Source: a virus
DNA length: 64,000 nucleotides
IMG/VR virus record: IMGVR_UViG_3300021335_000003
Reading direction: 5' to 3' (one strand)
Shown here piece by piece: positions 30,549 to 57,674 of this stretch. The notes below the pieces were generated by a model, which was given only the letters and a program-made list of their open reading frames with translations, was not told the origin of the DNA and made no database searches. A program made the translations under genes and the position numbers. The first letter of the stretch is position 1; every line of letters starts with the position of its first letter.

Positions 30549-30577
30549 TTGACAATCGTAAAAAACTACTATATAAT
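30549..30577 (+). promoter_or_regulatory. Perfect sigma70 consensus promoter TTGACA-N17-TATAAT heading the enzyme cluster
   Basis: -35 at 30549-30554, -10 at 30572-30577, AGGAG RBS, ATG at 30599. Confidence 0.85.
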
Positions 30578-34071: not shown

Positions 34072-35445
34072 ATGGAGCGCAGCGAAAGTGAAGAAATAAA
34101 GCGCATTGATGGTATAACACAAGAAATATCACCAACGTTTTGTTTTGCAAAATGGTATCATGCTAACATATATTTCCAAACAGGTGAAACACACAGTTGT
34201 TATCATCCTGCTCCTCATAAGATTGACACAGCACCGTTATTAGAAAATCCAAGTGCAATACACAACACAGCACAAAAGAAACAAGAACGTGCTGCTATGA
34301 TGCGTGGTGAACAACCTAGTGGTTGTAACTACTGTTGGAAAATTGAAGCACTTGGTAAAGATTATGTCAGTGATAGAAAGCAGCGTAATCAAACTATTTT
34401 CTTCAAGCATAGACTGAATGCTGTAAAAGAAGGTGGTGCAGAGTTTGACGTTAATCCAGAATACTTGGAAGTATCATTTGGCAACGAATGTAACTTTAGA
34501 TGCGGATATTGTCATCCAAAAGCAAGCAGCAGATATTATCAAGAAATCAAACAACATGGTCCTTACACAAATGTTAAAAATCACAGATGTGATATTGACT
34601 GGTTTCAGATATTTGAAGAAGAAAACAATCCGTATTTAGATGCGTTTTGGCGTTGGTGGCCTGAGCTTAGTAAAGAGCTGCACATTCTGCGCATTACAGG
34701 CGGAGAGCCAACAATACAACAAAGCACGTACAAACTGTTTGATATGTTAGACGCAGATCCTAAGCCCGAACTAGAACTAAACTGTAACAGCAACTTAGGC
34801 GGCAAACCAAAGCAGTTAGAAAAGTTTACAAACCGTGTAAATGATTTGCTTACAAATAATAAAATTCGACGTTTTAAAATGTTCACTAGTATTGACACTT
34901 GGGGCAAACGTGCAGAATACATACGTGACGGATTAGACATAGAAGTGTTTGAACGCAATTTGGATTATTTTATGCGTAACTGTGAAGCACCTATGGTGTT
35001 GATGATTACGTTTAACATATTCAGTGTAACAACATTCCGCACACTATTAGAAAAGATCTTAGAATGGCGTGCAAAATACAATGATGTAGAAACACACAGA
35101 TGGCAACGTTTGGGTTTTGATACACCGCATCTAAAAGAGCCGCTGCAATATGATATTAACATTTTGCCAAACAACTATATGACCTATATGCGTGACCATT
35201 TGCAGTTTATAAAAGAAAATGTAGATGACAATCGCAAAGATGCGTTTAGCACTATTGAGTATGAAAAATTTAGACGTGTTGTTGATTATATGGATACAAC
35301 AGAATATCCACTAGAAAAAGTTATACAAGGGCGTAGAGATTTCCACAACTTCTTTGAAGAACAAGGACGCAGACGTGGAGTTGATCACAAACAAGTATTT
35401 CCAGAAATGTCAGACTTTTTTGAGTTGTGCAGCAAATACGTCTAG
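34072..35445 (+). CDS. Radical SAM enzyme with N-terminal Twitch/SPASM-like Cys domain
   Basis: CNFRCGYC and ITGGEP; N-terminal C..KW...SCYH...CNYC. Confidence 0.9.
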   Translation: MERSESEEIKRIDGITQEISPTFCFAKWYHANIYFQTGETHSCYHPAPHKIDTAPLLENPSAIHNTAQKKQERAAMMRGEQPSGCNYCWKIEALGKDYVSDRKQRNQTIFFKHRLNAVKEGGAEFDVNPEYLEVSFGNECNFRCGYCHPKASSRYYQEIKQHGPYTNVKNHRCDIDWFQIFEEENNPYLDAFWRWWPELSKELHILRITGGEPTIQQSTYKLFDMLDADPKPELELNCNSNLGGKPKQLEKFTNRVNDLLTNNKIRRFKMFTSIDTWGKRAEYIRDGLDIEVFERNLDYFMRNCEAPMVLMITFNIFSVTTFRTLLEKILEWRAKYNDVETHRWQRLGFDTPHLKEPLQYDINILPNNYMTYMRDHLQFIKENVDDNRKDAFSTIEYEKFRRVVDYMDTTEYPLEKVIQGRRDFHNFFEEQGRRRGVDHKQVFPEMSDFFELCSKYV

Positions 35446-36024
35446 TACCTGTTTTGACTCAGGCCATTGTACTTTAGACAGATCATTTAACCAGTGTTCA
35501 ACATCAACTTTCCAAAATGTTTGGAATGCACCTTTGTACTCTAGTTCAAATGGATCTTTAAGATATCCATGACGTGACATAATTTTAGCCCAAGTTCTAT
35601 GCACTTTGCGTTGGCTTGCTGTTTCTAGGTTATTTGTGCTTACATACATTGGCTTTTCTAGCCCTAAGTAATAAAAACAAGCAGGTGTAAGCATCTGACT
35701 TGTGTGATGATTCATAGGGCTACGATCATTGTTATGTACTTTGTGTCCTCTTATGTCATCTACACGTTCAATAAGCAATGCTGTACGTGCAGCAATACGA
35801 TGTGCATTTTTGCCAAGTATGCCCAATTGTTTTAAACTATGTGTGATTGTTGTACCTATTACTCTGTCTTTATAATACAAAAGTATTAGTGTAGCATCTT
35901 CGTGCTTATCAATATAATCAATAAGCACTGTTTTGTTATGGTTGTTGTAAAAGCCTCTAGCAGCAGCACCTTCGTACCAATCTGCTAGATCTTGTGTTCC
36001 GTCATAAACTTCTAGTCTATACAA
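35410..36024 (-). CDS. Hypothetical protein, possibly GNAT-fold acyltransferase-like
   Basis: Probable TTG start at 36024 overlaps the ligase stop (ORF is open to 36060). Beta-alpha pattern 'LILLYYKDRVIGT...HRIAAR...MYVSTN'; the fold call is weak. Confidence 0.4.
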   Translation of the reverse strand: MYRLEVYDGTQDLADWYEGAAARGFYNNHNKTVLIDYIDKHEDATLILLYYKDRVIGTTITHSLKQLGILGKNAHRIAARTALLIERVDDIRGHKVHNNDRSPMNHHTSQMLTPACFYYLGLEKPMYVSTNNLETASQRKVHRTWAKIMSRHGYLKDPFELEYKGAFQTFWKVDVEHWLNDLSKVQWPESKQVLDVFAAQLKKV

Positions 36025-37006
36025 AAACTTGCGTCCTGTCAATCTTACGTAGATTATCATCTACTTTAATTTCATCTACTTTTTTAGCTTTAATTTCGTA
36101 TGCGCATTTGTGTTGTTTTGTGAACTGTGTAATATCTAAATCGCCTGTGTAATATACAACACATTCGTGTGCAACTTTTCTACATAGTGCTAAACTTGCA
36201 CCATTTTCAATCGCAACTTTTTCAATTTGCTCTGGATAAACTCTGTCACCACAATTTTCCATTTTAAATGCATTGAATCTACGCCCTGATAGTGCAAACT
36301 CATCTGCGTCTGTAAATTCTACTAGATCGCCACTGTTCCACCATTCTGTTTGATCTTTGTACTTGCAGCAGAACTCAGTTGTGCCATCATCGTGTTTCTC
36401 AAACTTGTATTCAATATTAGGATTTATATCACTAAACTTATACACGTCTTGGCGTTCTGTGCTCATAATAACCGGAGGTACTTCTGTGCTGCCGTAACCT
36501 GTGTTAACCTGTTTTGCTCCTTTTGAACGCAAATCTTCCATTAGTCCTGTAGGAGTAATGTCACTGCCTACCTGCATTTGCTTCATACAACTTAAATCCA
36601 AGTTTTTCCATTTCTTGTGTCTATGCCAAGTTTTCCAAACATTAGGAAGTATCAACATATTTGTCGGCTGTACTTCACGAATTCTATCTGGTAGATTGGC
36701 AACTGTTGTCTCAATAAATGTATCACAGTTTGCAACGTGACAAGGATATAGGCTCATACTTGTAAAACCAATGCCTCTAGGATTGTATAATGCCATCATA
36801 CTACTGTTTGAATCAAGCATGAAATATTCTGCATTGTATTCTGCAACTTTGCGCATTAGTTTTGCACTGTGTTGATATGTTTTAGGATTACCAGTTGTAC
36901 CGCTGGTAGTCACTGTAATATTCCAATTTTCTAAATAGTTAATAACTGCTGATCTCACGTGATCATTGTTACTTTCCATATAGGGTATGCCGTCAATATA
37001 GATCAT
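36017..37006 (-). CDS. Compact adenylate-forming (acyl-CoA synthetase/AMP-binding) enzyme
   Basis: TTSGTTGNPK (A3), GYGSTE (A5), SGDL (A7), GR (A8), 'VYPEQIE' and RKIDR (A10); GGAGG RBS. Confidence 0.85.
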   Translation of the reverse strand: MIYIDGIPYMESNNDHVRSAVINYLENWNITVTTSGTTGNPKTYQHSAKLMRKVAEYNAEYFMLDSNSSMMALYNPRGIGFTSMSLYPCHVANCDTFIETTVANLPDRIREVQPTNMLILPNVWKTWHRHKKWKNLDLSCMKQMQVGSDITPTGLMEDLRSKGAKQVNTGYGSTEVPPVIMSTERQDVYKFSDINPNIEYKFEKHDDGTTEFCCKYKDQTEWWNSGDLVEFTDADEFALSGRRFNAFKMENCGDRVYPEQIEKVAIENGASLALCRKVAHECVVYYTGDLDITQFTKQHKCAYEIKAKKVDEIKVDDNLRKIDRTQVFV

Positions 37007-37036
37007 GCTGAATACACCTCCAAATTTGTAATTTTA

Positions 37037-37064
37037 ATTATAGCACAGATTTAGTGTAAGTCAA
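37037..37064 (-). promoter_or_regulatory. Sigma70-type promoter TTGACT-N16-TATAAT with extended -10 (TGc)
   Basis: Minus strand: -35 at 37064-37059, -10 at 37042-37037, upstream of the ligase and overlapping the end of the fibre-like gene. Confidence 0.65.
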
Positions 37065-38508
37065 TCCAATTGTTACCATCGTAACCTTGAAATTTATTAG
37101 TATTAACATTAAAGATAATCATGCCTGCTTCAGCAACCATGCTATCTCTATCTGCAAAAGTAGTACCTCTTGCTTTGAATACCGGTACAGTTAAAACACC
37201 ATCACCGTCAAAGCTCAAACGTCTTGGATTTGTTTGGTCGTGATTATCACTGCCTTTTGGCAAACTCACAACAAATTTACTTTCTACATATGTATCAGTT
37301 GGTGCTGCATCTGCATAGATACCAAACAAGCCACCAGTAACAAAATCTGATCCATTGTAACCTTCGCCTGAAACAATTGCTAGTGGATTATCTGTTCCTA
37401 CAGCAGTTTTTGCATTTACTGTTCCGTTGTATTTTTTAACATTTAAAAATTCTTCATCTGCACTAGTTTCCACTGTGATTGCATCTGAAAAAATATTCAC
37501 ATCGCAATCAATTGCATCCGTAATATAGCCACCAATTGTTACTACACCATTTACGGGGTGTAACACTGTTCCTTGCGCACTAGCAGTTAAAGCATCTTGC
37601 GCACCGTTTTCATCACTGTATATAAAGTTACCATCAAAATTTCCTCTAATAGTAGCAGGTGCAGTATCACAGTCTGGATCAATAGGATCGTGTAGTGTAA
37701 TAATTTCTTGGCCATTGTAATGATGCACATGCGCACGTAATGCAGTATCTGCTCTTGTAGCGCCAAGCATGACAATCGGGCCACGGGCTAAGTCATCATC
37801 GGCAGGTGCTATATGGTGTTCTAATCCACCGTAAAAACTATATTGAGGATGAGTTATTGTAGTGTTTAAGTTTGTTATGTTTGTGGTATCTGGAGCACCT
37901 TCGTATGTGTCTAAATTTGTACCGATTAAATGCCCGTTTAAATTACCTACAATATTACCTGTAACGTTACCTACCAAATCTCCTGTAACATCGCCTGTGT
38001 GTTCGCCTACACTGTTACCAAAAAATTCACCATATGAAGTACCATTGAAGTCTCCACTGAATGTGCCATACACAACACCTTCACTTGTGATGTTTCCATA
38101 TACATCACCATATAGATCGCCTGTAATTGTTGTAGCAGTTACAGTTCTATTTGTAGCATCAACGATTGTTGTACCTTCTGGATCAACAACGTTTCCATAA
38201 ACAGGAGCATTGATTCTAGCATTTATACCGTCAATAAGTTTTGTTGCGCCACTGTTATCATATACACTACCTGATACATCTGCTTTAAACAAACGTTCGC
38301 TTGCATTATATACAACATTACCTTCTGGATCGTGTATATCACCAACCAATGGTCCATACAATTTTCCTGTAGATACATCAACTTGTATTAATCCTTCGTT
38401 GGATACAACATCTGCTTTAATAACACCTTGCCAACTATCAACAAGTGTAGATTCATCTGCGCCTACAATATCTAATCTATATGCTTCACCTGGTATAAAA
38501 TCTGCCAT
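37051..38508 (-). CDS. Fibre-like virion protein embedded in the enzyme cluster
   Basis: G-D/N-V/L-x tetrapeptide repeats (GDVTGDLVGNVTGNIVGNLNG) as in 22905-24923; C-terminal 'RDSMVAEAGMIIFNVNTNKFQGYDGNNW'; GGAGG RBS. Confidence 0.7.
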   Translation of the reverse strand: MADFIPGEAYRLDIVGADESTLVDSWQGVIKADVVSNEGLIQVDVSTGKLYGPLVGDIHDPEGNVVYNASERLFKADVSGSVYDNSGATKLIDGINARINAPVYGNVVDPEGTTIVDATNRTVTATTITGDLYGDVYGNITSEGVVYGTFSGDFNGTSYGEFFGNSVGEHTGDVTGDLVGNVTGNIVGNLNGHLIGTNLDTYEGAPDTTNITNLNTTITHPQYSFYGGLEHHIAPADDDLARGPIVMLGATRADTALRAHVHHYNGQEIITLHDPIDPDCDTAPATIRGNFDGNFIYSDENGAQDALTASAQGTVLHPVNGVVTIGGYITDAIDCDVNIFSDAITVETSADEEFLNVKKYNGTVNAKTAVGTDNPLAIVSGEGYNGSDFVTGGLFGIYADAAPTDTYVESKFVVSLPKGSDNHDQTNPRRLSFDGDGVLTVPVFKARGTTFADRDSMVAEAGMIIFNVNTNKFQGYDGNNWIDLH

Positions 38509-38525
38509 AACGTCCTCCGCTACAT

Positions 38526-38533
38526 TATTTATC
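38526..38533 (-). promoter_or_regulatory. Putative late promoter (GATAAATA) for the embedded fibre-like gene
   Basis: Same motif as 4547, 22272 and 26808, on the minus strand 18 nt upstream of the start. Confidence 0.6.
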
Positions 38534-38543
38534 TATTCTGTTC

Positions 38544-38572
38544 TTGACTTCGAAGTTAAGTTATCATATAAT
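38544..38572 (+). promoter_or_regulatory. Sigma70-type promoter TTGACT-N17-TATAAT (likely leaderless transcript)
   Basis: -35 at 38544-38549, -10 at 38567-38572, ATG at 38579, no SD. Confidence 0.75.
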
Positions 38573-38578
38573 TACATT

Positions 38579-39613
38579 ATGTATGATATTTTTTACATAG
38601 GCAATCCGTCTAAATTACAATTTACCAAACTTAAAACTAGATTTCCTACAGCAAAATATGCTGAAGATGTTCCACAAGCAAAACGTAAAAGTCTTACAAA
38701 AATGCTTTGGATTGTTTATGATAACCTTGTGGTTAATGAAGACTTTGATTTTAATTATACAGTTAATGAATATAATGACACATATACTCACGTATTCAAG
38801 AATGGTGATTTTTATGACGGTATATGTTTAATGCCAAAAAATAGTCATCATGGACCAGGTGAATTAAAAGCAAGATTTTATATTAACAAAAAGTTTGTAG
38901 AAATACAAGCAAGTATGCCTATGGCATCTAATTTTGATAAAGTTTTTATCAGTTACAATGAGCCAAATGCAGACGAAAATTATGAGCGTATATTAGAACG
39001 TTTTCCAGATGTAAAACGCATACACGGTGTAAAAGGAATTCATCAAGCACACATAGCCGCTGCTAGTTTATGTGAAACAGAAATGTTTTGGATTATAGAC
39101 GGTGATGCACAACTGATGGATGATTTTGCATTTGATTATATTCCAGAACATCATAATCAAGGTGCTGTGCATGTGTGGAGAAGTTTAAATCCGGTAAATG
39201 GGTTAGTATATGGCTATGGTGGTATAAAACTGTTTCCTACAAAACTAACTTTAACAATGGATACAAGCAAACCTGATATGACAACCAGTATTAGTGACAA
39301 GTTTGTAGCCATGAATAAAATTTCTAATATTACAGCTTTTAACACTGATCCTTTTAACACATGGAAAAGTGCTTTTAGAGAATGTGTCAAATTGAGTAGT
39401 AAAATTATTGACAGACAAAAAGACGAAGAAACAAATAAAAGATTGAGAACTTGGTGTATATATACAGAAAATGATCCTCCTTTTGCAGAATATGCGTTAA
39501 AAGGTGCAAAAGCTGGCGCTGCTTATGGTGCTCGTCACAGAAACAATACCGAAGAATTGAAACGTATCAATGACTTTGACTGGTTGAAGGAAAAGTTTGA
39601 TGGAAATATTTGA
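38579..39613 (+). CDS. Two-domain glycosyltransferase-like protein
   Basis: True start is probably MYDIFYIG (38579) rather than the ORF-track 38210. Tandem domains: 'TKMLWIVYDN' and 'FISYNEPNA...TEMFWIIDGDA...NGLVYGYGGIKLFP...WKSAFRECVK'. Confidence 0.65.
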   Translation: MYDIFYIGNPSKLQFTKLKTRFPTAKYAEDVPQAKRKSLTKMLWIVYDNLVVNEDFDFNYTVNEYNDTYTHVFKNGDFYDGICLMPKNSHHGPGELKARFYINKKFVEIQASMPMASNFDKVFISYNEPNADENYERILERFPDVKRIHGVKGIHQAHIAAASLCETEMFWIIDGDAQLMDDFAFDYIPEHHNQGAVHVWRSLNPVNGLVYGYGGIKLFPTKLTLTMDTSKPDMTTSISDKFVAMNKISNITAFNTDPFNTWKSAFRECVKLSSKIIDRQKDEETNKRLRTWCIYTENDPPFAEYALKGAKAGAAYGARHRNNTEELKRINDFDWLKEKFDGNI

Positions 39614-40640
39614 AATACTAGATAGATTTGAATTATTAAATAAAAATAATACAAATTTTGAATTGCTACGTAGATCATATGTTGATGAAGATTTGCACAG
39701 TATTCTTAAATTAAGTAATAATGAAGAATTGCGTAAAGCAATTTTAGAAAAAAATATTCATAGTATTTTTAGGATTGTTGAAAACAAAAGATGTATAGGC
39801 GATCTAGAGGATTTGCGTAAAGCGGTTTTAGAAAATAATTTACACAGTTTGTTTAGATTATTACCAGGTAATGAAGATTTACGCAAGGCAGTCATTGAAA
39901 ATAATATTTACAGTATTTTTAGACTTACAAAAAATGAAGATTTAAAAAAATTAGTTACTGATAATAATATATGGAGTTTATTTAAATTACTTAATACATA
40001 TACAGAAAGTTATTTTGTAAAAGCACTAAAAGATATAATAACAAATGATATTAATTTTGATAAAGATTGTTTAAGCCGGGGACAAATTAAAAGTAAAATG
40101 TGGCTAGTAGAAACAATACAAGACCTTGATTTAGATTTAGGCACAGTATTTCTATGTGCAGGATGGTATGCCACACTAGCAACAATGCTTTTTGAAAGTG
40201 ACGCAAAAATAAATAAGATTGTAAGTTTTGATTCAGATCCTAATGTTTGGAAAATTGCAGAAATTTTTAATAAAAAATGGGTGTTAGAAGATTGGCGATT
40301 TAAAGCATGTACTCAAGATATACATGAAATTATGTTTGATGAGCACATATATGAAGTAAATAAAAGTGATGGAACAAAAGAAACATTATGGGGATATCCT
40401 AATACTGTAATTAACACAAGTACAGAACATATTAATGATTATGAAAATTGGTATAATAATATTTTAGATAATCAATTGCTTGTATTACAAGGTAACAATT
40501 ATTTTGAAATCAATGAACATGTTAATTGTTCAAATGATTTAAATGAATTTAGTAAAAAATCGCCTATGAGTAAAGTTTTATATGAAGGTGAGTTAGAACT
40601 ATATAGATATAAAAGGTTTATGAAAATTGGATATAAATGA
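39600..40640 (+). CDS. Class I SAM-dependent methyltransferase-like protein with N-terminal helical repeats
   Basis: 'VFLCAGWYATLA' (motif I-like), 'IVSFDSD', 'VINTSTEH' and 'LQGNNY'; ATG at 39600. Confidence 0.65.
   Translation: MEIFEILDRFELLNKNNTNFELLRRSYVDEDLHSILKLSNNEELRKAILEKNIHSIFRIVENKRCIGDLEDLRKAVLENNLHSLFRLLPGNEDLRKAVIENNIYSIFRLTKNEDLKKLVTDNNIWSLFKLLNTYTESYFVKALKDIITNDINFDKDCLSRGQIKSKMWLVETIQDLDLDLGTVFLCAGWYATLATMLFESDAKINKIVSFDSDPNVWKIAEIFNKKWVLEDWRFKACTQDIHEIMFDEHIYEVNKSDGTKETLWGYPNTVINTSTEHINDYENWYNNILDNQLLVLQGNNYFEINEHVNCSNDLNEFSKKSPMSKVLYEGELELYRYKRFMKIGYK
39687..39993 (+). repeat. Four to five imperfect ~21-aa repeats (E-D/E-L-R-K-A-V/I-x-E-N-N-x-x-S-x-F-R-L)
   Basis: Visible in both protein and DNA (gaagatttacgcaaggca / gaggatttgcgtaaagcg / gaagaattgcgtaaagca). 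Confidence 0.8.
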
Positions 40641-40851
40641 TTTAGATGTTAGGCAATTGCAAAAGGAAAGTGCAAGAGCACTAAGCACTATGCAAGCTAC
40701 AAATAATAATATTTGGCAGTTTAACAAAAAAGCACACCATAATAGCCAAAATTGGTATAAAGCAGTAATTGAATGGTACATAGAGCAATATGGCGATTTA
40801 CCAAGCAAGACCGGACCTGGCAAGGATGTAAAGTTAATATACGATGTATAA
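40627..40851 (+). CDS. Small hypothetical protein (74 aa)
   Basis: TTG start; overlaps both neighbours and exactly fills the gap in the operon. Confidence 0.6.
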   Translation: MDINDLDVRQLQKESARALSTMQATNNNIWQFNKKAHHNSQNWYKAVIEWYIEQYGDLPSKTGPGKDVKLIYDV

Positions 40852-41923
40852 GTATGAAGATATACGTGTAGTTCATTTAGAAAACACACAAAACTGTCAA
40901 GCCAGTTGTCCTATGTGCGATCGAAATCAAAACGGCGGCGCAATAAACCCGCATATTGATCTCAGCGAACTTACACTAGAAGATTGCAAACGCATCTTTG
41001 AACCAGATTTTATCAAACAACTTAACACAATGTACATGTGTGGCAACTTGGGTGATCCTATTGTAGCAAGAGACACATTAGATATATTCAAATACTTTAG
41101 AGAGCATAACAGTAAAATGTGGCTCTCTATGAACACAAATGCAGGAGCAAAAGATGAAACATGGTGGCGTGAACTTGCCCAAGTCTTTGGTAGAATGGGT
41201 GCTGTTATTTTCAGCGTGGATGGTCTTAGTGACACTAATCATTTATACAGGCAGGGTGTTGTCTGGGACAATGTAGAACGCAACATGCGAGCATTTATAG
41301 ATGCTGGCGGCAGAGCACGTTGGGACTTTTTAATCTTTGAACACAACCAACATCAAGTTGAAGAAGCAGAAGCATTAGCAAATGCTTGGGGATGTGAAAG
41401 ATTTATTAAAAAGAAAACAGGCAGATTTGTTACTGCTAGTAGCGAAAAGAAAGAATCTCATCAAGCAGTAAATCGCAAAGGCAAAGAAACACAAAAATTA
41501 TCAAAGCCAAAAGAGGAGTTCCAAAATAATGCAATCAAACAATATGACAAAGTAAAAGACAAACACGGTAGTATGGATGCATACTATAACAGAGCAGAAA
41601 TACAATGCAAAGTTAAAGACGAGGGCAATTTGTTTATTACAGCAGAAGGACTTGCTATGCCCTGTTGTTGGACTGCTGGACGTATGTACAAGTGGTGGCA
41701 CAAAGATCCTAAGGTAGAACAAGTTTGGGACTTCATTGATGACGTAGGCGGCAAAGAAGCAATCAGTGCTAAGAAGCACGGATTAAAGGCTGTTTTTGAT
41801 ACAGGCATATTTGACAACATAGAAAACAGTTGGAGCAAGCCAAGTTGTGCAGATGGCAAGTTAAAAGTATGTAGTATGAAGTGCGGTAAAGAATTTGATC
41901 CTTTTGGAGCTCAATTTAAATGA
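40844..41923 (+). CDS. Radical SAM enzyme with C-terminal Twitch/SPASM-like domain
   Basis: CQASCPMC, CGNLGDP and FSVDG; C-terminal C...PCC...CSMKC. Confidence 0.9.
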   Translation: MYKYEDIRVVHLENTQNCQASCPMCDRNQNGGAINPHIDLSELTLEDCKRIFEPDFIKQLNTMYMCGNLGDPIVARDTLDIFKYFREHNSKMWLSMNTNAGAKDETWWRELAQVFGRMGAVIFSVDGLSDTNHLYRQGVVWDNVERNMRAFIDAGGRARWDFLIFEHNQHQVEEAEALANAWGCERFIKKKTGRFVTASSEKKESHQAVNRKGKETQKLSKPKEEFQNNAIKQYDKVKDKHGSMDAYYNRAEIQCKVKDEGNLFITAEGLAMPCCWTAGRMYKWWHKDPKVEQVWDFIDDVGGKEAISAKKHGLKAVFDTGIFDNIENSWSKPSCADGKLKVCSMKCGKEFDPFGAQFK

Positions 41924-42990: not shown

Positions 42991-43032
42991 TCATATGACA
43001 AATAACTACGTATATAATAAGGTAAGTATAAT

Positions 43033-48699: not shown

Positions 48700-49828
48700 A
48701 CATGCATGTGTAATGCCATTCCATCATATGGCAATGCGTCCAGATGGACAGATATTTCCTTGCTGTATATTTAGACAGGAAGAAGTGCCTGATGATTTGA
48801 ATGTAGCACACCCTGATCCATTTAATCACGAATATATGAATTGGTTAAGACAAAAAATGCTCAATGATGAGTATGTGCATGGTTGTAAAAAGTGTTATGA
48901 AGATGAAAAACACAGTGCTAGAAGTATGCGAACTGATCTAATATCTCCATGGGGAGGAGATTTTGGATTACCGAGTGAAGAAGAAGGGCTAGGGCGTGTA
49001 AAGAAACTTACAAATATTGATTTAGCATTATCTAATGTGTGTAATAACAAGTGTAGAATGTGTATGCCTCAATTAAGCACACACTGGTACAGTGATGCTA
49101 AAAAACTAGGTATGGAAATACCCAAAGGTGTTATCACTAACAATACAATTGTTGATTCATATGACTTGAGTGACTTGCGTTTTATCAAAGTATTAGGCGG
49201 TGAACCTATGATGGAGCAAGCAAAACTCAAAAAAGTGCTGAATAAATGCACACTTGAAAATATAACAATATTACTAGTCACAAATGTTAGTATATTGCCT
49301 GATGACGAATTATTGGATTTGCTAAAACAATGTAAAAATGTTAATATTGATTTAAGTATTGATAGTTATGGTAAATTAAATGAATTTTTACGTAAAGACA
49401 GCAACTGGCAAAATGTATATAACAATATTCAATGGTATAAAGAACATTTTGATAATATAAATGTACATAGTGCTATTAGTGCTTACAACGTAAATAAATT
49501 ACACGAAATAATTAACTTTTGTGTTGAACAAAAACTGTATCATGAATGTGTAGTAGTGGACGGCCCTCAGTGGATGCAACCAAGAAATCTTCCTAATGAA
49601 ATAAAATCTTGGCTATTAGATTATTTAGAAGACTTGGAAAATAATACAACTGTAATTTATAAAAAAATTATTAATTTATTAAAAAATGAAATGAAAACAG
49701 ATGGCGATTTTGGATTATTTGTCCGTAACGATGCACAATTTAATAAAATAAGGAATGAACATTGGATGGATAAAAACGAAGAATTATGGAACAGGATTGA
49801 AAAACTTATTACACCGGAGTTATTTTAA
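48683..49828 (+). CDS. Radical SAM enzyme with N-terminal Twitch/SPASM-like domain
   Basis: ACVMPF...PCC...CKKC, then CNNKCRMC and LGGEP; probable ATG at 48683. Confidence 0.9.
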   Translation: MKKIPKHACVMPFHHMAMRPDGQIFPCCIFRQEEVPDDLNVAHPDPFNHEYMNWLRQKMLNDEYVHGCKKCYEDEKHSARSMRTDLISPWGGDFGLPSEEEGLGRVKKLTNIDLALSNVCNNKCRMCMPQLSTHWYSDAKKLGMEIPKGVITNNTIVDSYDLSDLRFIKVLGGEPMMEQAKLKKVLNKCTLENITILLVTNVSILPDDELLDLLKQCKNVNIDLSIDSYGKLNEFLRKDSNWQNVYNNIQWYKEHFDNINVHSAISAYNVNKLHEIINFCVEQKLYHECVVVDGPQWMQPRNLPNEIKSWLLDYLEDLENNTTVIYKKIINLLKNEMKTDGDFGLFVRNDAQFNKIRNEHWMDKNEELWNRIEKLITPELF

Positions 49829-51141
49829 TGACAGAAACATTTTGTCCTATACCTTGGATATTTCAAGCAGCTAGATCAAATGGTGATATAAGAATTTGTT
49901 GTCAAGCTAACATTACAAAAAATCAAGGTGTTATACGTAAGGAAGATGGTAGTGCATATAATGTAGGTATTGACGATCTAAATGAGTCTCGTAACGCTGA
50001 CCTTATGAAAAATGTTAGACTTAATATGTTAAATGGTATATGGAGCGACGAATGTGGACGTTGTAAAAACGAAGAACTCAATGGATTAAGCAGCAGGCGA
50101 AAATACGAAGAAAAAAATTGGCCTAATTTTACATTTGATAAAGCTAAAAGTATAACAAATGCAGATGGCAGTATTGATACCAACAAAAATCCTGTTCAAT
50201 ATTATGATTTACGTTTTGGAAATTTTTGTAATTTAAAATGTCGTATGTGTGGTCCAACTGATAGTGACACGTGGTATGAAGATTGGGAAAAACTTACAGG
50301 AAAAACAACTTATAAAGAAACTAGCGGTGAAGTACAAATATATCGTAAAGGAAACAAACTTGTTTCTGATGCATACAATTGGGTACATAACGACAGTTTT
50401 TGGAAACAATTATATAATAATGTGCAAAATATAGAACATGTATATTTTGCAGGTGGAGAACCTATGCTTATAGATAGGCATTACGATTTTTTACAACATT
50501 GCATTGATACCGACAGCGCAAAAAATATCATAGTCGAATATAATACAAATATGAGCACATTGCCTCCGAGAGTAATTGATATGTGGAAGCAGTTTAAACA
50601 AGTTAGAGTAGGTGCTAGTATAGATGGAATGGGTAAAGTATTGGAATATCAACGTAATCCTGCCAAATGGAGTAAGTTACTAAAAAATTTATATACATTA
50701 GATGCATCATCGCCAAATATTGTTGCTTGGTTAGCATTTACAGTGACAGCATACAATGTGAATCATATGGTATATTTTATGAAATGGAAACTTATGGAGA
50801 GCGGTTTTAAAAAACTTAACTGTTTTAAAGGCAAACCTATTATCACTTTCCACATGGCACATCATCCTAAACACTTAAATATCCGTGTGCTACCAGATGA
50901 ACTAAAAAACAAGGTAACAGAAAATTTTGATAGATTTGTTGATTGGATTGAAACTTCTGATTTTCCTGAAAACACTAAAAATAAAGCTAAAGACATACGC
51001 AATAGCATAGTAAGTTATATGACAAGCGAAAGCTATTATAAAGAGTATTGGGATTATTTTAAGCAATATACCAATACTTTAGACAAAATTAGAGCTGAAA
51101 GTTTAATTGATGTAGAACCTATATTTAAGGATTATATTTAA
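49828..51141 (+). CDS. Radical SAM enzyme with N-terminal Twitch/SPASM-like domain
   Basis: FCPIPW...RICC...CGRC, then CNLKCRMC and FAGGEP; closest in motifs to 43766-45166. Confidence 0.9.
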   Translation: MTETFCPIPWIFQAARSNGDIRICCQANITKNQGVIRKEDGSAYNVGIDDLNESRNADLMKNVRLNMLNGIWSDECGRCKNEELNGLSSRRKYEEKNWPNFTFDKAKSITNADGSIDTNKNPVQYYDLRFGNFCNLKCRMCGPTDSDTWYEDWEKLTGKTTYKETSGEVQIYRKGNKLVSDAYNWVHNDSFWKQLYNNVQNIEHVYFAGGEPMLIDRHYDFLQHCIDTDSAKNIIVEYNTNMSTLPPRVIDMWKQFKQVRVGASIDGMGKVLEYQRNPAKWSKLLKNLYTLDASSPNIVAWLAFTVTAYNVNHMVYFMKWKLMESGFKKLNCFKGKPIITFHMAHHPKHLNIRVLPDELKNKVTENFDRFVDWIETSDFPENTKNKAKDIRNSIVSYMTSESYYKEYWDYFKQYTNTLDKIRAESLIDVEPIFKDYI

Positions 51142-52277
51142 TGAGTTTTGATACAGTTGATTTATTAACAGGCAAAGTTTTCCAAGTTACTTGGGACTTA
51201 GGAAGACGTTGTAATTATGATTGTAGTTATTGTCCTGCACATAGGCACGATAACTTTAGTCCTCACGCTAGTTTAGATGAACTTAAAAGTGCTGTAGATT
51301 TTTTATTTGAATATATTGACACCTATATGGAAAAACGTAGCTATAAACACACAAGTATTAGTTTTACAGGTGGAGAACCGACAGTCAATCCAAATTTTAT
51401 TCCTTTTGTAAAATATTTAAAAGAAGAATACGAAGCCAAGTATAAAGATAAATGGGCTTGTGGTTTTGCTCTTACAAGTAATGGTGCAATGAGCGCAAAA
51501 ATGGCTGATGCAGTAATGGAAAATTTAGGACACATTACAGTTAGCTATCACGCAGAAAGTGATAACAAACTTAAACAACAAGTACGTGATAGAATAAAAC
51601 AATTTCATGATGCAGATTTTAGTATTAGTTGTAATGTAATGTTTCATGCAGCGTATTTTGACGAATGTAAAGATTTGTGTGATTATCTACATGATTTAGG
51701 TGTGAAATATGTTCCTAGAATTATTGGCGAAGAGCCAGACAGCAAAAGTAATTTTGCACATATGTACACTGATGAACAATTAGATTATATGAAAAATTAT
51801 TGGACATATAAAAATGCAGAATTAAATGAAACAAAAGAAGAAGCTGCTGTTTTAAGTGCTGCCGGAGAAAAAACTAGTGAAAAGAAAAAACTAGGTATGA
51901 CAATTGGACGTCCTTGTTGCGGAAGTAGAGAAATGTGCTTGAGTTTGAACGGTGAAAGTCGTAAAAGCACCTTTGTTGATTTGAGAGAATTTAAAGGATG
52001 GCATTGTAGTGTAAATTATTTCTTTTTACATCTCGAACAACAAACAGATAGTGTTTATCATCATCAAACTTGCCAAGCTCGCTTTGATCAAACTCGAGGT
52101 CCTATTGGCAAAATTAGTGAAGGCGCAAAAATTTTATCAGATCTTAAAGAAAAAATGAACAACAACACTTTGCCTACAATTATATGTCCTAAACACACTT
52201 GTGGTTGTGGTTTGTGTGCACCAAAAAGCAAATACGAAGAAAATTATAACAAGGTAATGGAAAACCATATTTTATGA
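51141..52277 (+). CDS. Radical SAM enzyme with Cys-rich C-terminal domain
   Basis: WDLGRRCNYDCSYC and FTGGEP; C-terminal PCC...FKGWHC...C...CPKHTCGCGLC. Confidence 0.9.
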   Translation: MSFDTVDLLTGKVFQVTWDLGRRCNYDCSYCPAHRHDNFSPHASLDELKSAVDFLFEYIDTYMEKRSYKHTSISFTGGEPTVNPNFIPFVKYLKEEYEAKYKDKWACGFALTSNGAMSAKMADAVMENLGHITVSYHAESDNKLKQQVRDRIKQFHDADFSISCNVMFHAAYFDECKDLCDYLHDLGVKYVPRIIGEEPDSKSNFAHMYTDEQLDYMKNYWTYKNAELNETKEEAAVLSAAGEKTSEKKKLGMTIGRPCCGSREMCLSLNGESRKSTFVDLREFKGWHCSVNYFFLHLEQQTDSVYHHQTCQARFDQTRGPIGKISEGAKILSDLKEKMNNNTLPTIICPKHTCGCGLCAPKSKYEENYNKVMENHIL

Positions 52278-52906
52278 ACTTCAAAGAAATACAAAAACTA
52301 GATTCATATTTTGTTGTTTATGCATTAATTGCCGGTCATTGGAAAGGCAGAACTTGTATAGATGTTGGTTTAAATGACAGAAAGTATCTAAGTTTTTGGC
52401 AACCTATGTTTGAAAAAATTATAGGTTATGAACCAAATCCGTGGTGTAATATAGATACAAGTGAAAGTAAATATGATGATTGTGTAGTACACAAAAAAGC
52501 AATTAGTAATTATACTGGAGAAGCTATACTTTATTGTAATATGGATGATAGTGGGTATTCTACATTAGAAGATTATACTAAACTTAATTTTGGAAATAAT
52601 TGGAAAAAAATAAAACAAATAGAAGTAGAAGTTACCACATTGGACAATGAACATTACAATAAAACATCAGATATAGATTTTATAAAAATTGATATAGAAC
52701 AGCATGATAATTATGCATTGTTGGGTGCAGAAAAAATTATCAAACAATGCAGTCCTTTGGTTCATGTAGAACATTTTGATTCTTATACCCGTGATATTTT
52801 CAAAACTTTTAACTATATAAGTTTTGTACCTTATGATAAGAGATTAGGTTTATGGGGAATTCCAAAAGAAAAATCACATTTTTTTGAAAGATGGACAAAA
52901 AAATAA
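52274..52906 (+). CDS. FkbM-family SAM-dependent methyltransferase
   Basis: 'CIDVG', 'GYEPNP', 'KAIS', 'VTTLD' and 'IDFIKIDIE...L.GA..II....P...VE'. Confidence 0.8.
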   Translation: MNFKEIQKLDSYFVVYALIAGHWKGRTCIDVGLNDRKYLSFWQPMFEKIIGYEPNPWCNIDTSESKYDDCVVHKKAISNYTGEAILYCNMDDSGYSTLEDYTKLNFGNNWKKIKQIEVEVTTLDNEHYNKTSDIDFIKIDIEQHDNYALLGAEKIIKQCSPLVHVEHFDSYTRDIFKTFNYISFVPYDKRLGLWGIPKEKSHFFERWTKK

Positions 52907-52910
52907 AATT

Positions 52911-53933
52911 ATGCAATACGTGGATAAGAATAACTTATTTGAAATTCAAATAGATGTAACTAGCTATTGCAATAGTTATTGTGGTGCTTGTGTTAGAAAT
53001 ATAAAAGGCGGTCCTGTTAATCCAAACGTTATATTAGAGCATATTGATTGGAATGTTTGGAAAGATATTTGTACTTTTTGTGGCGAAAACAATGTCAAGC
53101 TAATGACATTTAATGGCAACTTTGGAGATATTTCTAGTCATCCTAATTATATTGAAATGTTAGAATATCTATATAAAAAAACAAAAAAGATTAAATTAAA
53201 TATTCACACAAATGGAGGTGCGAGATCGGAAAAATTTTGGAAAGATTTAGCTGGTTGTGTTAAAAAATTTCCTTCATCTATTGTAACTTTTAGTATAGAT
53301 GGATTAGAAGATACTAATCATATATATCGTCGAGGTACAGATTTTTCAAAAATTATTCATAACATGACCGCATATATAAAAAGCGGTGGTTTAGCTCGAT
53401 GGAGAATGATTGTATTTGATCATAATAAACATCAAATTCAACAAGCAAGTGATCTTGCAAAAAAACTAGGATGCTACGCTTTTTCTTTGAATAGAAGTTT
53501 TGATACTAATATCGAAGTAATGCAATACAGAACCTTTGATGCAGGATATATTACTTCTCCTAATCACGATGAAGTAAAAGTTTTATCAGCAAAATTTGAT
53601 TGGGAACTGAAATTAGATCAAGAAATGTCACAATACAAAGGTTTAGAAAAAAATGATACGTTATGTCCTTGGCAACAAGATAAAAAAATTCAAATTAATC
53701 AAATAGGAGAGGTATGGCCTTGTTGTTATTATAGTATGCACACAGGACGCCCTAACGATAGACGTAGATTTATTTGGTTTGATGAGCAATTAAAACAATA
53801 CCAAGAACATTTTAATAATATTAAATTTTATAAATTATCTCAAATTCTTGAGCATGAATTTTTTACTAAAGATTTGCAATATAGTTTTAAAAATAGTAAA
53901 ATGGGATTATGTAAAGAGAAATGTGGAGTGTAA
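52911..53933 (+). CDS. Radical SAM enzyme with C-terminal Twitch/SPASM-like domain (third paralog of the 40844 type)
   Basis: CNSYCGAC, NGNFGD, TNGG and FSIDGL; C-terminal CPW...WPCC...CKEKC; probable ATG at 52911. Confidence 0.88.
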   Translation: MQYVDKNNLFEIQIDVTSYCNSYCGACVRNIKGGPVNPNVILEHIDWNVWKDICTFCGENNVKLMTFNGNFGDISSHPNYIEMLEYLYKKTKKIKLNIHTNGGARSEKFWKDLAGCVKKFPSSIVTFSIDGLEDTNHIYRRGTDFSKIIHNMTAYIKSGGLARWRMIVFDHNKHQIQQASDLAKKLGCYAFSLNRSFDTNIEVMQYRTFDAGYITSPNHDEVKVLSAKFDWELKLDQEMSQYKGLEKNDTLCPWQQDKKIQINQIGEVWPCCYYSMHTGRPNDRRRFIWFDEQLKQYQEHFNNIKFYKLSQILEHEFFTKDLQYSFKNSKMGLCKEKCGV

Positions 53934-53934
53934 T

Positions 53935-54603
53935 ATGAAAGTTGTCTGTGTTGGATGTAGTTTTACTGATGGTTTATTACAATATCAAACTAAACATCAT
54001 GGAACATATCCATACATATTAGGTAGATTGTTACCTGAAGCAACTATATATAATCTTGGACATAAAGGAAGTGATAATTTATTTTCTTTAATTATGATAG
54101 AACAAGCAATAAAAGAAATTCAACCAGATGTTATTGTAAGGCAAGTTGCAAGTCCTCAAAGATTTTTTATTGTGAAACCAGATATAAATGTTAATTTTTT
54201 TGATTTTGTAAAAAATATAGTTCTAAACTATAATGCATTAGATAAAAAAAAGTTACAACATTTTATAAATTTTTTTACTCCTACTACCGGTGTAGGAAAA
54301 TTATATGATGAAAAAACGCAAGACAACCTAAGAAATATGCATTATAGGTATCATAATCTTATGTTATCTCAATATCAAACTGACGCATATTTAAATTACG
54401 GTGATATTTTAATGGAACAAAATAAAATCAAGAATGTTACTTTTTCATGGTTAAAAAACAATAAGTACAAAGACTGTGTTTCTATAGAAGAAACAATAGG
54501 ATTTAATAAAAATTACTTTTGCGACCCACAAGGGCATTTTAATGCAGAAGGTAACGCATTAGTAGCAGAGCAAGTAAAAAATATGATAATGGAAAAAAGA
54601 TGA
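53935..54603 (+). CDS. SGNH/GDSL-like hydrolase or acyltransferase
   Basis: MKVVCVGCSFTDG, 'NLGHKGSDN' and C-terminal DPQGHFNAEGN; probable ATG at 53935. Confidence 0.65.
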   Translation: MKVVCVGCSFTDGLLQYQTKHHGTYPYILGRLLPEATIYNLGHKGSDNLFSLIMIEQAIKEIQPDVIVRQVASPQRFFIVKPDINVNFFDFVKNIVLNYNALDKKKLQHFINFFTPTTGVGKLYDEKTQDNLRNMHYRYHNLMLSQYQTDAYLNYGDILMEQNKIKNVTFSWLKNNKYKDCVSIEETIGFNKNYFCDPQGHFNAEGNALVAEQVKNMIMEKR

Positions 54604-55769
54604 CAAAAGAAAAACAATTTGAATGTGGATTTTTATCTTCAGGTATATGGATAGGACCTGGAGCAAAAAATGTTATGCCCTGTTGTCATGTTAGTAAATT
54701 TGGTAATAGAAATAGTTTTGAAGAATTTGATAGTTTAATAAATCATCCTTCTCTTGTTGCAGTAAGAAAAGAAGCAGCACAAGGAAAAATACCTTCGATA
54801 TGTAATGATTGCGTATCAAAAGAAAAAGACGGTTTGTTTTCTCCTAGAAATAAAGCAAATAAATTTTTTAGTAATAAAGGCGTTGTAAAAGAAATCATCG
54901 ATTATACCGATGTAGAGCAAATTTATGTAAGTCTTTCAAACATTTGTAATTTTAAATGTGTTATGTGCAGTGGAGGTCAAAGTCATTTAATCGCTAAAGA
55001 AAGAAGTGCAGACTCTATTAGAGATCCTTTGTTAATGGTTAATGATGATAAATTTGAACAATTTATTGATGTTATAAAAAAAGCAAAAAATCTTAAAAAT
55101 ATTCAAGTTACAGGTGGCGAACCATTTCAACATAAAATTAGACTACGTAAATTATTAGAACATTTACCTAAAGACATATATTTTTATATGCACACCAATG
55201 GAAGTTTTTTTGATAAAGAAACACAGGAATTGTGTAAGATGATGGAAAGTTTTAGAGAGGCATCTGTAATTTTTAGTGTTGATGGTTATGAGAATTCTTT
55301 TGAATATCAAAGAACAAATGGTGTATGGAAAGACGTTTTGTATAATCTTGAACAATTCAATAAAGTAATTGACACAACAAAAGTAAAACCTAGATTAGGA
55401 TATACAGTAACGTGTTTTAATGTAATTGATGTAGTAAATTTTATTAAAAATTATCATTATCTTTTTGACAGACTAGATTTTCATCCAATAAGAAAACCTG
55501 AAGAATATGTGATTGGAATGTTAAACCAAGATACATTAGAAAAAACTTATGACGAATTGAAAAACTTTTTACAAAACATTAACGATGATGTAAAAAATAA
55601 AATTCATGTAAAAGAAGTTTTAGTAAATTTAGAAAATTACATAAACAATAACGTTTCTGAGACTAATATTGAACAGTTTTGGAAAACCGCCAAATATATG
55701 ACAGAAGTAAGAGGTATCAATTTAGAAACAAAATTGCCTTCTTTAATAAAAAAATTAAGGACAGTATAA
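54600..55769 (+). CDS. Radical SAM enzyme with N-terminal Twitch/SPASM-like domain
   Basis: FEC...PCC...CNDC, then CNFKCVMC, TGGEP and FSVDG. Confidence 0.9.
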   Translation: MTKEKQFECGFLSSGIWIGPGAKNVMPCCHVSKFGNRNSFEEFDSLINHPSLVAVRKEAAQGKIPSICNDCVSKEKDGLFSPRNKANKFFSNKGVVKEIIDYTDVEQIYVSLSNICNFKCVMCSGGQSHLIAKERSADSIRDPLLMVNDDKFEQFIDVIKKAKNLKNIQVTGGEPFQHKIRLRKLLEHLPKDIYFYMHTNGSFFDKETQELCKMMESFREASVIFSVDGYENSFEYQRTNGVWKDVLYNLEQFNKVIDTTKVKPRLGYTVTCFNVIDVVNFIKNYHYLFDRLDFHPIRKPEEYVIGMLNQDTLEKTYDELKNFLQNINDDVKNKIHVKEVLVNLENYINNNVSETNIEQFWKTAKYMTEVRGINLETKLPSLIKKLRTV

Positions 55770-56536: not shown

Positions 56537-56556
56537 GTAAGAATAGATGTTATAAT
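56528..56556 (+). promoter_or_regulatory. Sigma70-type promoter TTGACG-N17-TATAAT (likely leaderless transcript)
   Basis: -35 at 56528-56533, -10 at 56551-56556, ATG at 56562, no SD. Confidence 0.7.
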
Positions 56557-56561
56557 TAAGA

Positions 56562-57674
56562 ATGAACGAAAATTTAAAATGGTCAAATTATGACTTCACT
56601 AAAATACCGTTTGATGATATTGTCAGTGTTGGCCAACGTACTCTTTTGTATCGTGATATATTTACAGTATCTTGGTTGTTAGGCAGATTTTGTAACTATA
56701 GATGTAGTTACTGCTGGCCCTATGCAAGAAGTGATAGGAAAGATCATAGACCAACTGAATTATGTTTAAAAACAATTGATGAAATAAAAAGGCAAGCACG
56801 TGAAAACAGTTTTAACAGTTTCCATTTTAGCCTTAGTGGCGGCGAGCCAACTTTCCATCCTGGTTACTTAGATATTTTACAGCATCTTGCCGATGATGTT
56901 GATAATACCAATTATACCTCTGTCCATATGACATCAAACTGTAGCCGTCCAATGAGTTGGTTTGAAGATTATGTAGAACGTGTAAAGCTATTTCATAGAG
57001 CAAGTATTACAGCCAGCCTACATACAGAACACTTAAATACTCGTGAGAAGATGCAAGACTTTGCAGACAAGTTGATATTGTGTCAGGAGCATGATGTACA
57101 GGTTACGATCAATATGGTTATGGTTCCGGACTGGTTTGAGCGTGATTGGGAAAACGCTCTATTCTTTCATGAGCAAGGTATTAATGTCACCCTTAAACCG
57201 CAGTCCGACCCTACGGCGTCAAGAATCGTTGAAGGATACAAAGAAGAAGATTTGAAACGTTTATGGAATGGTATGCCACAACGTGCATACACAGAAAGCA
57301 AACGTGTATGGGCAGAACGTCCAAAGCCAAAGTTTGAAATACCCAAAGATGCATATCACAAACCAGATGCAAGTGTTCCATGGCATTTCCAAGTAGAGTT
57401 TAGAGACAAAGACGGTAAAGCATGGTATATGGATCAAGCAGAACGTTTTAATGCTTTCAACTTTAACAAGTTTAAAGGCTGGAGTTGTAATGCTGGTTAT
57501 CAAGGTATTATCATTCGTGAGCCTGATGGTAGTGTAAAACGTTCATACAGTTGCCATGATGTTCCAATTGGCAATATAGAAACTGGATTTAAACTATTTG
57601 ATAAACCAATGCCTTGTATTACAGAAAGTTGTGTAAGTAGTGCAGATAGTAAAATACCAAAAAGAAAGTTATAA
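56562..57674 (+). CDS. Radical SAM enzyme (paralog type of 51141-52277)
   Basis: WLLGRFCNYRCSYC and LSGGEP; C-terminal FKGWSC...SC...PCITESC. Confidence 0.9.
   Translation: MNENLKWSNYDFTKIPFDDIVSVGQRTLLYRDIFTVSWLLGRFCNYRCSYCWPYARSDRKDHRPTELCLKTIDEIKRQARENSFNSFHFSLSGGEPTFHPGYLDILQHLADDVDNTNYTSVHMTSNCSRPMSWFEDYVERVKLFHRASITASLHTEHLNTREKMQDFADKLILCQEHDVQVTINMVMVPDWFERDWENALFFHEQGINVTLKPQSDPTASRIVEGYKEEDLKRLWNGMPQRAYTESKRVWAERPKPKFEIPKDAYHKPDASVPWHFQVEFRDKDGKAWYMDQAERFNAFNFNKFKGWSCNAGYQGIIIREPDGSVKRSYSCHDVPIGNIETGFKLFDKPMPCITESCVSSADSKIPKRKL

Follow-up and report, generated by a model that had tools for sequence, protein, structure and literature searches.

This work describes an island of radical S-adenosylmethionine (SAM) genes in the viral genome record IMGVR_UViG_3300021335_000003 from IMG/VR. 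The stretch that was analyzed, referred to here as the window, is 64,000 nucleotides long, has a GC content of ~32%, and comes from an uncultured marine jumbo phage of the T4-like/Rak2-like kind. Between positions 34072 and 57674, eleven radical SAM genes of three designs (types A, B, and C) alternate with genes for PP-loop ATPase-like, glycosyltransferase-like, and other putative partner proteins. The coordinates of these genes and of nearby features are collected in Table 1.

Radical SAM enzymes of the island

An initial annotation, made from the DNA letters only, had proposed eleven radical SAM paralogs in three architectures. Both counts hold: all eleven open reading frames (ORFs) are uninterrupted and encode one CxxxCxxC motif each, and BLAST returns the same three groups, with identities of 20 to 31% within type A, 24 to 34% within type B, and 21% within type C, and almost nothing between groups. 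The Pfam Radical_SAM model (PF04055) matched eight of the eleven proteins above its cutoff. In the other three, A1 scored 24.7 bits against a cutoff of 29.5, and B2 and B3 gave no match to this model; all three retain CxxxCxxC and match radical SAM models of NCBIfam. For conservation of the additional Cys residues, we compared nonidentical homologues (268 of type A, 127 of type B, and 71 of type C) from 80 IMG/VR loci, each chosen around an A2 ortholog. The extra Cys residues are conserved in 96 to 98% of type A, 92 to 94% of type B, and 85% of type C sequences (four Cys in the last case). This is far beyond chance at sequence identities of 20 to 30% and fits metal ligands. On sequence grounds, all eleven proteins are genuine radical SAM enzymes, each with one extra predicted Cys-ligated iron-sulfur (Fe-S) site.

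Table 1. Radical SAM genes, partner genes, and promoter-like sites in and around the island
Feature	Position	Strand	Remarks
Sigma-70-like promoter site	30549-30577	+	TTGACA-17-TATAAT, 12/12 consensus; upstream edge of island
GT-A-like protein, DxD motif	33155-34069	+	No Pfam match; paralog of C-terminal part of 38210-39613
A1, type A	34072-35445	+	NF033640 297.9 bits; Cys 24, 43, 85, 88 and C140xxxC144xxC147
Near-perfect sigma-70 site	38544-38572	+	11/12 consensus; just before long plus-strand operon
Conserved 74-aa ORF	40627-40851	+	TTG start; overlaps B1 start by 8 nt; no family match
B1, type B, core	40844-41923	+	Radical_SAM 34 bits; Cys 18/22/25, 255, 274/275, 343, 347
B2, type B	41920-42990	+	Pfam SPASM 252-317, E 0.0018, below cutoff; 31% identical to B1
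A2, type A, most conserved member	43766-45166	+	NF033640 426 bits; SPASM 9-94, Radical_SAM 142-310 (Pfam)
PP-loop ATPase-like paralog 1	45153-46004	+	SGGADS at 56; weak TilS N-terminal domain match
A3, type A	46001-47329	+	NF033640 187.5 bits; PP-loop gene follows
PP-loop ATPase-like paralog 2	47298-48152	+	SGGADS at 48; C227 and C256xxC259xxC262 invariant
Short SDR-like protein	48136-48699	+	Weak adh_short and YdfG matches
A4, type A	48683-49828	+	NF033640 248.3 bits; weak N-terminal Pfam SPASM match
A5, type A, core	49828-51141	+	NF033640 367.7 bits; 31% identical to A2
C1, type C, core	51141-52277	+	Radical_SAM 47.7 bits (Pfam); nine C-terminal Cys
FkbM-family methyltransferase	52274-52906	+	Pfam Methyltransf_21, 52.5 bits
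B3, type B, strain-variable	52911-53933	+	C-terminal Pfam SPASM 23.3 bits vs cutoff 21.5
A6, type A, strain-variable	54600-55769	+	NF033640 195.4 bits
C2, type C, core	56562-57674	+	Radical_SAM 58.9 bits (Pfam); four C-terminal Cys
Twelfth radical SAM, B12-binding class	57669-59222	-	PF02310 42 bits, PF04055 72.8 bits, both over cutoff

In type A, the Cys-rich domain lies at the N terminus, as the initial annotation had it: all six proteins have C-x17/18-(C)C-x40-62-CxxC ahead of their CxxxCxxC, with A1 and A3 having a single Cys where the others have CC. All six match the NCBIfam model NF033640 (N_Twi_rSAM) end to end, at whole-protein scores of 188 to 426 bits against a curated cutoff of 170 bits; types B and C score only 32 to 46 bits and are not members. 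In A2, Pfam also reports a SPASM domain, over its cutoff, ahead of the Radical_SAM domain. When a profile of the type A N-terminal domain alone (100 to 120 residues) was searched against the whole PDB, only BtrN was returned, and the match covered its twitch domain; the full-length type A profile matched BtrN with an E value of 1e-5. The four conserved Cys residues of type A (C9, C27, C90, and C93 in A2 numbering) align column for column with a C, a second C, and a CxxC of BtrN, which we take to be its four auxiliary-cluster ligands. In addition, hhalign aligned the type A N-terminal domain with the type B C-terminal domain at 96.5% probability (E 7e-10); since the two are homologous, one operon has the same module in both positions. 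The evidence supports the type A N-terminal domain as a true twitch module, and its four Cys residues predict a BtrN-type twitch with a fully ligated auxiliary [4Fe-4S] cluster.

BtrN (butirosin 2-deoxy-scyllo-inosamine dehydrogenase; PDB entries 4M7S and 4M7T) is the founding twitch enzyme. It has the same C-x17-C spacing of the first Cys pair as type A but a shorter gap ahead of CxxC. The twitch domain follows the barrel in BtrN but precedes it in type A, and the type A barrels resemble that of BtrN no more than those of many other members of the superfamily. An AlphaFold2 model of A2 (predicted local distance difference test [pLDDT] score, 89.7; predicted template modeling score, 0.90) consists of a beta-hairpin with helices (residues 1 to 100), linker helices, the barrel, and a helical C-terminal region. 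Its barrel (residues ~130 to 430) matches anSME, CteB, BlsE, viperin, DesII, and SkfB at Z 11 to 12 with no clear winner. Foldseek and VIA matches of the model likewise cover the barrel only and pick out no single relative.

The initial annotation had contrasted the permuted domain order with the usual C-terminal position of SPASM/twitch domains. The order is real, being evident from both Pfam and NF033640, but its novelty is not supported: the twitch-first architecture is already curated as NF033640, and RadicalSAM.org mentions that some proteins in the SPASM/twitch megacluster have conserved Cys residues on the N-terminal side of the barrel (PMC9477430). Type A is a catalogued family without a characterized member. 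Its proteins conform to NF033640 in having an N-terminal four-Cys twitch, CxxxCxxC, GGE, and a helical C-terminal region. The family exists as a naming model only, whereas here it is represented by six (in relatives, 8 to 14) deeply diverged phage paralogs that always occur with types B and C. Our literature search found no paper naming NF033640 or giving the family a function, and searches on N-terminal twitch domains, Bdellovibrio radical SAM SPASM proteins, and phage glycan twitch enzymes found nothing.

Type B proteins have the two signatures first described for them: C-G-x-x-G-D-P replaces GGEP, and the C terminus reads C-x18-CC-x59-67-CxxxC. The former is a predicted altered SAM-binding motif; the C-terminal Cys-rich domain is, judged by profile comparison, homologous to SPASM/twitch. 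Among solved structures, the sugar decarboxylase BlsE (cytosylglucuronate decarboxylase, PDB entry 7VOB; E 1e-9) is nearest to type B in sequence, and it is also one of the best structural matches of type A (Z 11.8). The match between type B and BlsE covers the barrel only, at ~15% identity, and type B differs in having CGxxGDP in place of GGEP. The best NCBIfam matches of type B are maturases of metalloenzymes and peptides, all far below cutoff.

The type C signatures noted at the outset, W-x-x-G-R-x-C-N-Y-x-C-S-Y-C and F-x-x-W-x-C, proved invariant; in C2, the invariant residues are W38, G41, C44, N45, C48, Y50, C51, F304, W307, C309, and C331. The C-terminal Cys domain of this type appears to be different from the other two: hhalign gave probabilities of 3.9% against the type A domain and 0.1% against the type B domain, and Pfam gave no match. 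The AlphaFold2 model of type C is unreliable in the C-terminal region (pLDDT of <50). The nearest relatives of type C are ChlB, MoaA, and viperin, with matches over the barrel only.

The eleven paralogs do not cluster with a single characterized housekeeping family. Equivalog families for viperin, MoaA, QueE, PqqE, and sactisynthases were considered and rejected, as all scores fell far below the NCBIfam cutoffs; the best viperin, MoaA, and QueE scores were 18 to 43 bits against curated cutoffs of 180 to 284 bits. For leader-binding domains of the PqqD/RRE kind, Pfam gave no match to the eleven proteins at E values of up to 0.01, although a divergent RRE may be present. In addition to the eleven genes originally listed, there is a twelfth radical SAM gene, which lies next to the region on the opposite strand and encodes a B12-binding domain followed by a radical SAM domain.

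Distribution in marine viruses and Bdellovibrionota

Counted within 10 kb of the A2 ortholog, the 80 viral loci have 2 to 13 type A, B, and C genes each (median, 8), and five long viral records contain ~8 to 14 type A genes each that exceed the NF033640 cutoff. A2 orthologs occur in all 80 loci and B1 orthologs in 73; close viral orthologs are common for B1, B2, A2, A5, C1, C2, the PP-loop gene at 47298, and the short-chain dehydrogenase/reductase (SDR)-like gene at 48136 (at least 60% identity in 35 viral loci). Orthologs with at least 50% identity were found for A1 in 11 of the 80 loci and for B3 in only 6, and A6 had no ortholog over 39% identity across the same loci. The 268 type A sequences fall into 100 clusters at 60% identity. 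In marine metagenomes, A2 and C2 are each represented by thousands of 90% clusters, on contigs of up to 350 kb; for C2, the number of database clusters is 4838. Among 50,697 isolated phage genomes, a megablast search with the 24-kb island gave no match; tblastn with A2 gave only matches of 22 to 24% identity, in three jumbo phages, and tblastn with C2 gave none.

Five contigs assigned to bacterial metagenome-assembled genomes also carry A2, at 57 to 83% identity. They are labeled Crocinitomicaceae (L081), Arcticimaribacter (L082), Neisseriaceae (L083), Gammaproteobacteria (L106), and Rickettsiales (L107). A 74-aa ORF otherwise confined to the phages is present on all of them except L082, which is 2.9 kb long. 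These are probably phage contigs that were binned into bacterial genomes.

To survey bacteria, one genome per prokaryote species was scanned with a 9-sequence alignment of A2 and A5 as the query. A2 orthologs of 55 to 63% identity were retrieved from chromosomes and Mb-scale contigs of Bdellovibrionota, and types A, B, and C co-occur in the chromosomes of this phylum. The best identities in large Bdellovibrionota contigs were 63% for A2, 67% for C2, 52% for A5, and 46% for both B1 and C1; A1 reached 39% in the phylum. Type A genes number 8 to 20 each in five Bdellovibrionota genomes and are absent from all 14 control genomes. Genomes G006 to G010 (behind loci L088, L097, L120, L142, and L117) are Bdellovibrionota genomes of 1.9 to 4.5 Mb in which 8 to 20 N_Twi_rSAM genes are spread over several tandem arrays, and one 1.9-Mb genome has 16 such genes. 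The neighbors of the bacterial arrays include a 623-aa GT2 glycosyltransferase, a second GT2, a PMT_2-type GT-C, an AsnB-type amidotransferase, a fragment of a UDP-glucose/GDP-mannose dehydrogenase, and an Asp/Arg hydroxylase. A prophage origin of the bacterial copies was rejected on account of the Mb-scale chromosomes and the several separate arrays; among ~20 scanned neighbors, there was no phage gene.

The ortholog comparisons divide the eleven genes into a conserved core and a rapidly varying accessory set. The core consists of five genes (B1, A2, A5, C1, and C2), inherited together in a large marine jumbo phage clade and in Bdellovibrionota chromosomes, with A1, A3, A4, A6, B2, and B3 as accessory genes that vary between strains. 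The deep divergence of the paralogs had been read as a sign of specialized roles, and the comparison of phage and bacterial genes agrees: A2 is 63% identical to its Bdellovibrionota orthologs and 31% identical to its nearest paralog, A5. Because identity between phage and Bdellovibrionota orthologs lies far above paralog identity, the duplications are old and each paralog lineage has been kept. This fits specialized, nonredundant roles for the eleven genes rather than redundant copies. Given that A2 and C2 of Bdellovibrionota are 60 to 67% identical to their phage counterparts, the phages of this lineage could infect a member of the phylum or a host that exchanges genes with it.

Partner genes and possible functions

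Two PP-loop ATPase-like paralogs (30% identical) follow A2 and A3, respectively. Both have invariant T-R-S-C-E and C-x2-C-x2-C motifs, which suggests a putative Cys4 metal site; the C...CxxCxxC pattern presumably resembles the zinc site of QueC. These proteins fit no curated family, and a profile search of the PDB matched only the PP-loop region of TtuA, LarE, and AsnB. In two relatives, the orthologs of A3 and of the PP-loop gene at 47298 are fused in one ORF (L057:12556-15039, 827 aa; L075:12598-15129, 843 aa), and in a third locus, two type A enzymes are fused in tandem (L008:5948-8215, 755 aa). Such fusions point to joint action, at least within submodules, and argue for a functional tie between PP-loop paralog 2 and A3.

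The GT-A-like protein at 33155 and its paralog at 38210 have the consensus '...FIxVDGDN...', with D65 and D67 invariant, and homologues of 33155 adjoin A2 in Bdellovibrionota loci. PDB searches with sequences and profiles gave no match for this family; the nearest Atlas clusters of the 33155 family are named GT2-like (score, 0.99), which serves as a lead only. As family matches are missing, the glycosyltransferase label of these core partners rests on the DxD motif and the Atlas lead. The SDR-like gene is likewise present in Bdellovibrionota loci. Other genes of the island encode an AMP-binding fragment, a DXD glycosyltransferase, a fatty-acid-desaturase-like protein, and an Asp/Arg hydroxylase. 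The 74-aa ORF before B1 is found at full length in 68 of the 80 viral loci, at 74 to 99% amino acid identity. The encoded protein contains no Cys. Its center is nearly invariant (ESARAL..ATNNNI..FNK.AHHNS..WY.AVI.WY); conservation is even across this center, with no division into leader and core. The ORF is absent from large Bdellovibrionota contigs that retain the enzyme core.

Our preferred reading, to which we assign a rough probability of 0.55, is that the island encodes a modular, oxygen-independent sugar- or glycan-tailoring pathway in which specialized enzymes would edit several positions. Sugar or glycan editing appears most likely because of the sugar-gene neighborhoods, the affinities to BlsE and BtrN, and the four-Cys ligation; uronic-acid genes (for UDP-sugar dehydrogenase and AsnB) flank one bacterial array, in keeping with the likeness to BlsE. 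The enzymes would share one sugar-type substrate (a glycan, a nucleotide sugar, or a lipid-linked sugar), and each would remove a hydrogen atom at its own position. By analogy with BtrN, the electron would then pass to the fully ligated auxiliary cluster; a four-Cys cluster fits electron acceptance during oxidation of a sugar-like alcohol, and since ligation is by four Cys as in BtrN, the cluster is more probably electron accepting than substrate binding. Possible outcomes are dehydrogenation, epimerization, deoxygenation, decarboxylation, or C-C bond formation, all independent of oxygen. The product could be finished by the GT-A-like transferases, PP-loop enzymes forming amides or thio groups, the SDR-like protein, the FkbM methyltransferase, and the B12-dependent radical SAM methylase. 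That the substrate is a sugar, that the auxiliary cluster has a redox role, and that the steps follow one another are inferences, as is the new radical chemistry suggested by the initial annotation. Known antibiotic pathways with sugar-tailoring twitch enzymes have one or two of them each, compared to eleven here.

Several observations weigh against a sugar pathway. The peptide-modifying enzymes anSME, CteB, and SkfB match the A2 model at the same Z as the sugar enzymes do, and a strongly conserved small ORF stands directly before B1. No substrate is known for any member of types A, B, or C, most of the island genes outside the radical SAM set have no match in Pfam, NCBIfam, PHROG, or the PDB, and no gene for nucleotide-sugar synthesis was recognized within the island of this window.

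In the first of three rival explanations, the enzymes modify peptides or proteins in the manner of maturases or of the enzymes for ribosomally synthesized and posttranslationally modified peptides (RiPPs). The target would be the 74-aa product or the giant fiber and baseplate proteins, and the result would be cross-links, epimerization, or formylglycine-type oxidation. Peptides are the substrates of most SPASM/twitch enzymes characterized to date, the top neighbors by sequence as well as by structure include anSME, CteB, and SkfB, and maturases head the subthreshold NCBIfam matches of type B. The conserved small ORF, the position of the island directly after tail-fiber genes, and Asp/Asn beta-hydroxylase genes (of a protein-modifying type) in the island and in one bacterial locus also speak for it. 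However, a leader-binding domain went unreported by Pfam in all eleven proteins; the N terminus of type A is occupied by the twitch domain, and type B starts directly at the radical SAM motif. The 74-aa product lacks both Cys and a leader/core split and does not accompany the enzyme core into Bdellovibrionota, where the loci have sugar genes and no fiber genes. We consider peptide modification unlikely. Action on nucleotides or nucleic acids, either to hypermodify the bases of phage DNA or to make modified nucleotides, is very unlikely. The barrel is as close to viperin and MoaA as to its other neighbors, and the Cys motif of the PP-loop proteins resembles that of QueC, yet the family scores for viperin, MoaA, and QueE are a small fraction of their cutoffs, and the bacterial loci contain glycosyltransferase, uronic-acid, and amidotransferase genes rather than DNA-modification genes. 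The auxiliary cluster of MoaA is held by three Cys and binds substrate, unlike the four-Cys ligation predicted here.

There may also be no single pathway: each accessory enzyme could act alone on a different host or phage molecule, as a toolbox diversified by an arms race and without any sequence of steps. Accessory members do vary strongly between close loci, A6 and B3 are almost without close orthologs, type A is split into many clusters, and the island lies in the kind of hypervariable host-recognition region known from marine T4-like phages (PMC7029224). Against this stand the coinheritance of five members across phages and bacteria, the translational coupling of the genes in one operon, and the fusions of A3 with a PP-loop protein and of type A with type A in relatives. 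On balance, we regard independent action as quite unlikely. A bolder reading is doubtful and is offered only tentatively: the combined type A, B, and C core of giant phages and predatory Bdellovibrionota might make an unknown class of radical-edited carbohydrate or cofactor-like molecule, possibly with C-C cross-links or multiple epimerizations and deoxygenations, maybe introduced into a polymer. In that case, the twitch-first enzymes would perform radical SAM reactions of types not yet described, and the variable accessory paralogs would generate product diversity in an arms race over host range.

Radical SAM enzymes are a main source of new enzyme chemistry, and the inverted-order subfamily has no studied member. 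Its genes nevertheless rank with the most frequent ones in an abundant lineage of marine phages, and they reach 8 to 20 copies per genome in phages and predatory bacteria. The five-gene core, the fused A3 and PP-loop pair, and the sugar-gene neighborhoods offer a concrete experimental target. Should the product be a glycan of the virion or the cell surface, the pathway would bear on marine phage-host recognition and would explain the Fe-S assembly genes in these phages, as Nishimura 2017 proposed (PMC5332604). New in this work are the match of the Cys columns to the BtrN ligands, the homology between the N-terminal domain of type A and the C-terminal domain of type B, the core of types A, B, and C held in common with Bdellovibrionota, the fusion of A3 with a PP-loop protein, and the 74-aa ORF.

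Position of the island in the phage genome

The upstream half of the window is made up of phage tail genes, including those for a gp5-like spike, gp25, and a tail-collar protein, and the radical SAM island is placed directly after the baseplate and fiber genes. A baseplate wedge protein of 1154 aa matches PHROG 10646 with 976 bits and is 33 to 36% identical to its counterparts in jumbo phages of the Rak2, Atu_ph07, and SCTP-2 type. Between the wedge and tail-collar genes, positions 8513 to 22276 (plus strand) are taken up by a 4587-aa ORF with CBM5/12 and FG-GAP repeats, the product of which is probably a giant baseplate or fiber protein of this phage lineage.

Radical SAM genes in marine T4-like phages have been reported before. 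One T4-like marine viral genome has 12 radical SAM genes together with Fe-S assembly genes (Nishimura 2017, PMC5332604), and radical SAM cassettes occur in the hypervariable "host recognition cluster" of pelagimyophages (Zaragoza-Solas 2020, PMC7029224). The present island resembles these in being a variable region among tail and fiber genes that combines glycosyltransferases with radical SAM cassettes. The earlier studies only counted the genes; architectures, a core set, a Bdellovibrionota link, and a function are not given there. This phage also differs from the pelagimyophages in its baseplate, which is nearest to those of Rak2/Atu_ph07-type jumbo phages (35% identity), with no pelagimyophage among the matches listed.

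From ~38.6 to 57.7 kb, successive genes overlap or abut, and because of these overlapping starts and stops, they look like one operon. Of the two sigma-70-like sites in Table 1, one is found at the upstream border of the island and the other shortly ahead of the long operon; as such sites are no more numerous in the region than in shuffled sequences, they are suggestive only. A three-gene block at 35410-38508 (minus strand) runs in the opposite direction to the remainder of the island. In one of its ORFs (329 aa), the match to the AMP-binding domain is limited to the middle part (profile positions 170 to 337 of 384). Another, of 485 aa, shares 299 nt with the beginning of gene 38210 as annotated; this gene therefore probably starts at the ATG at 38579 instead.

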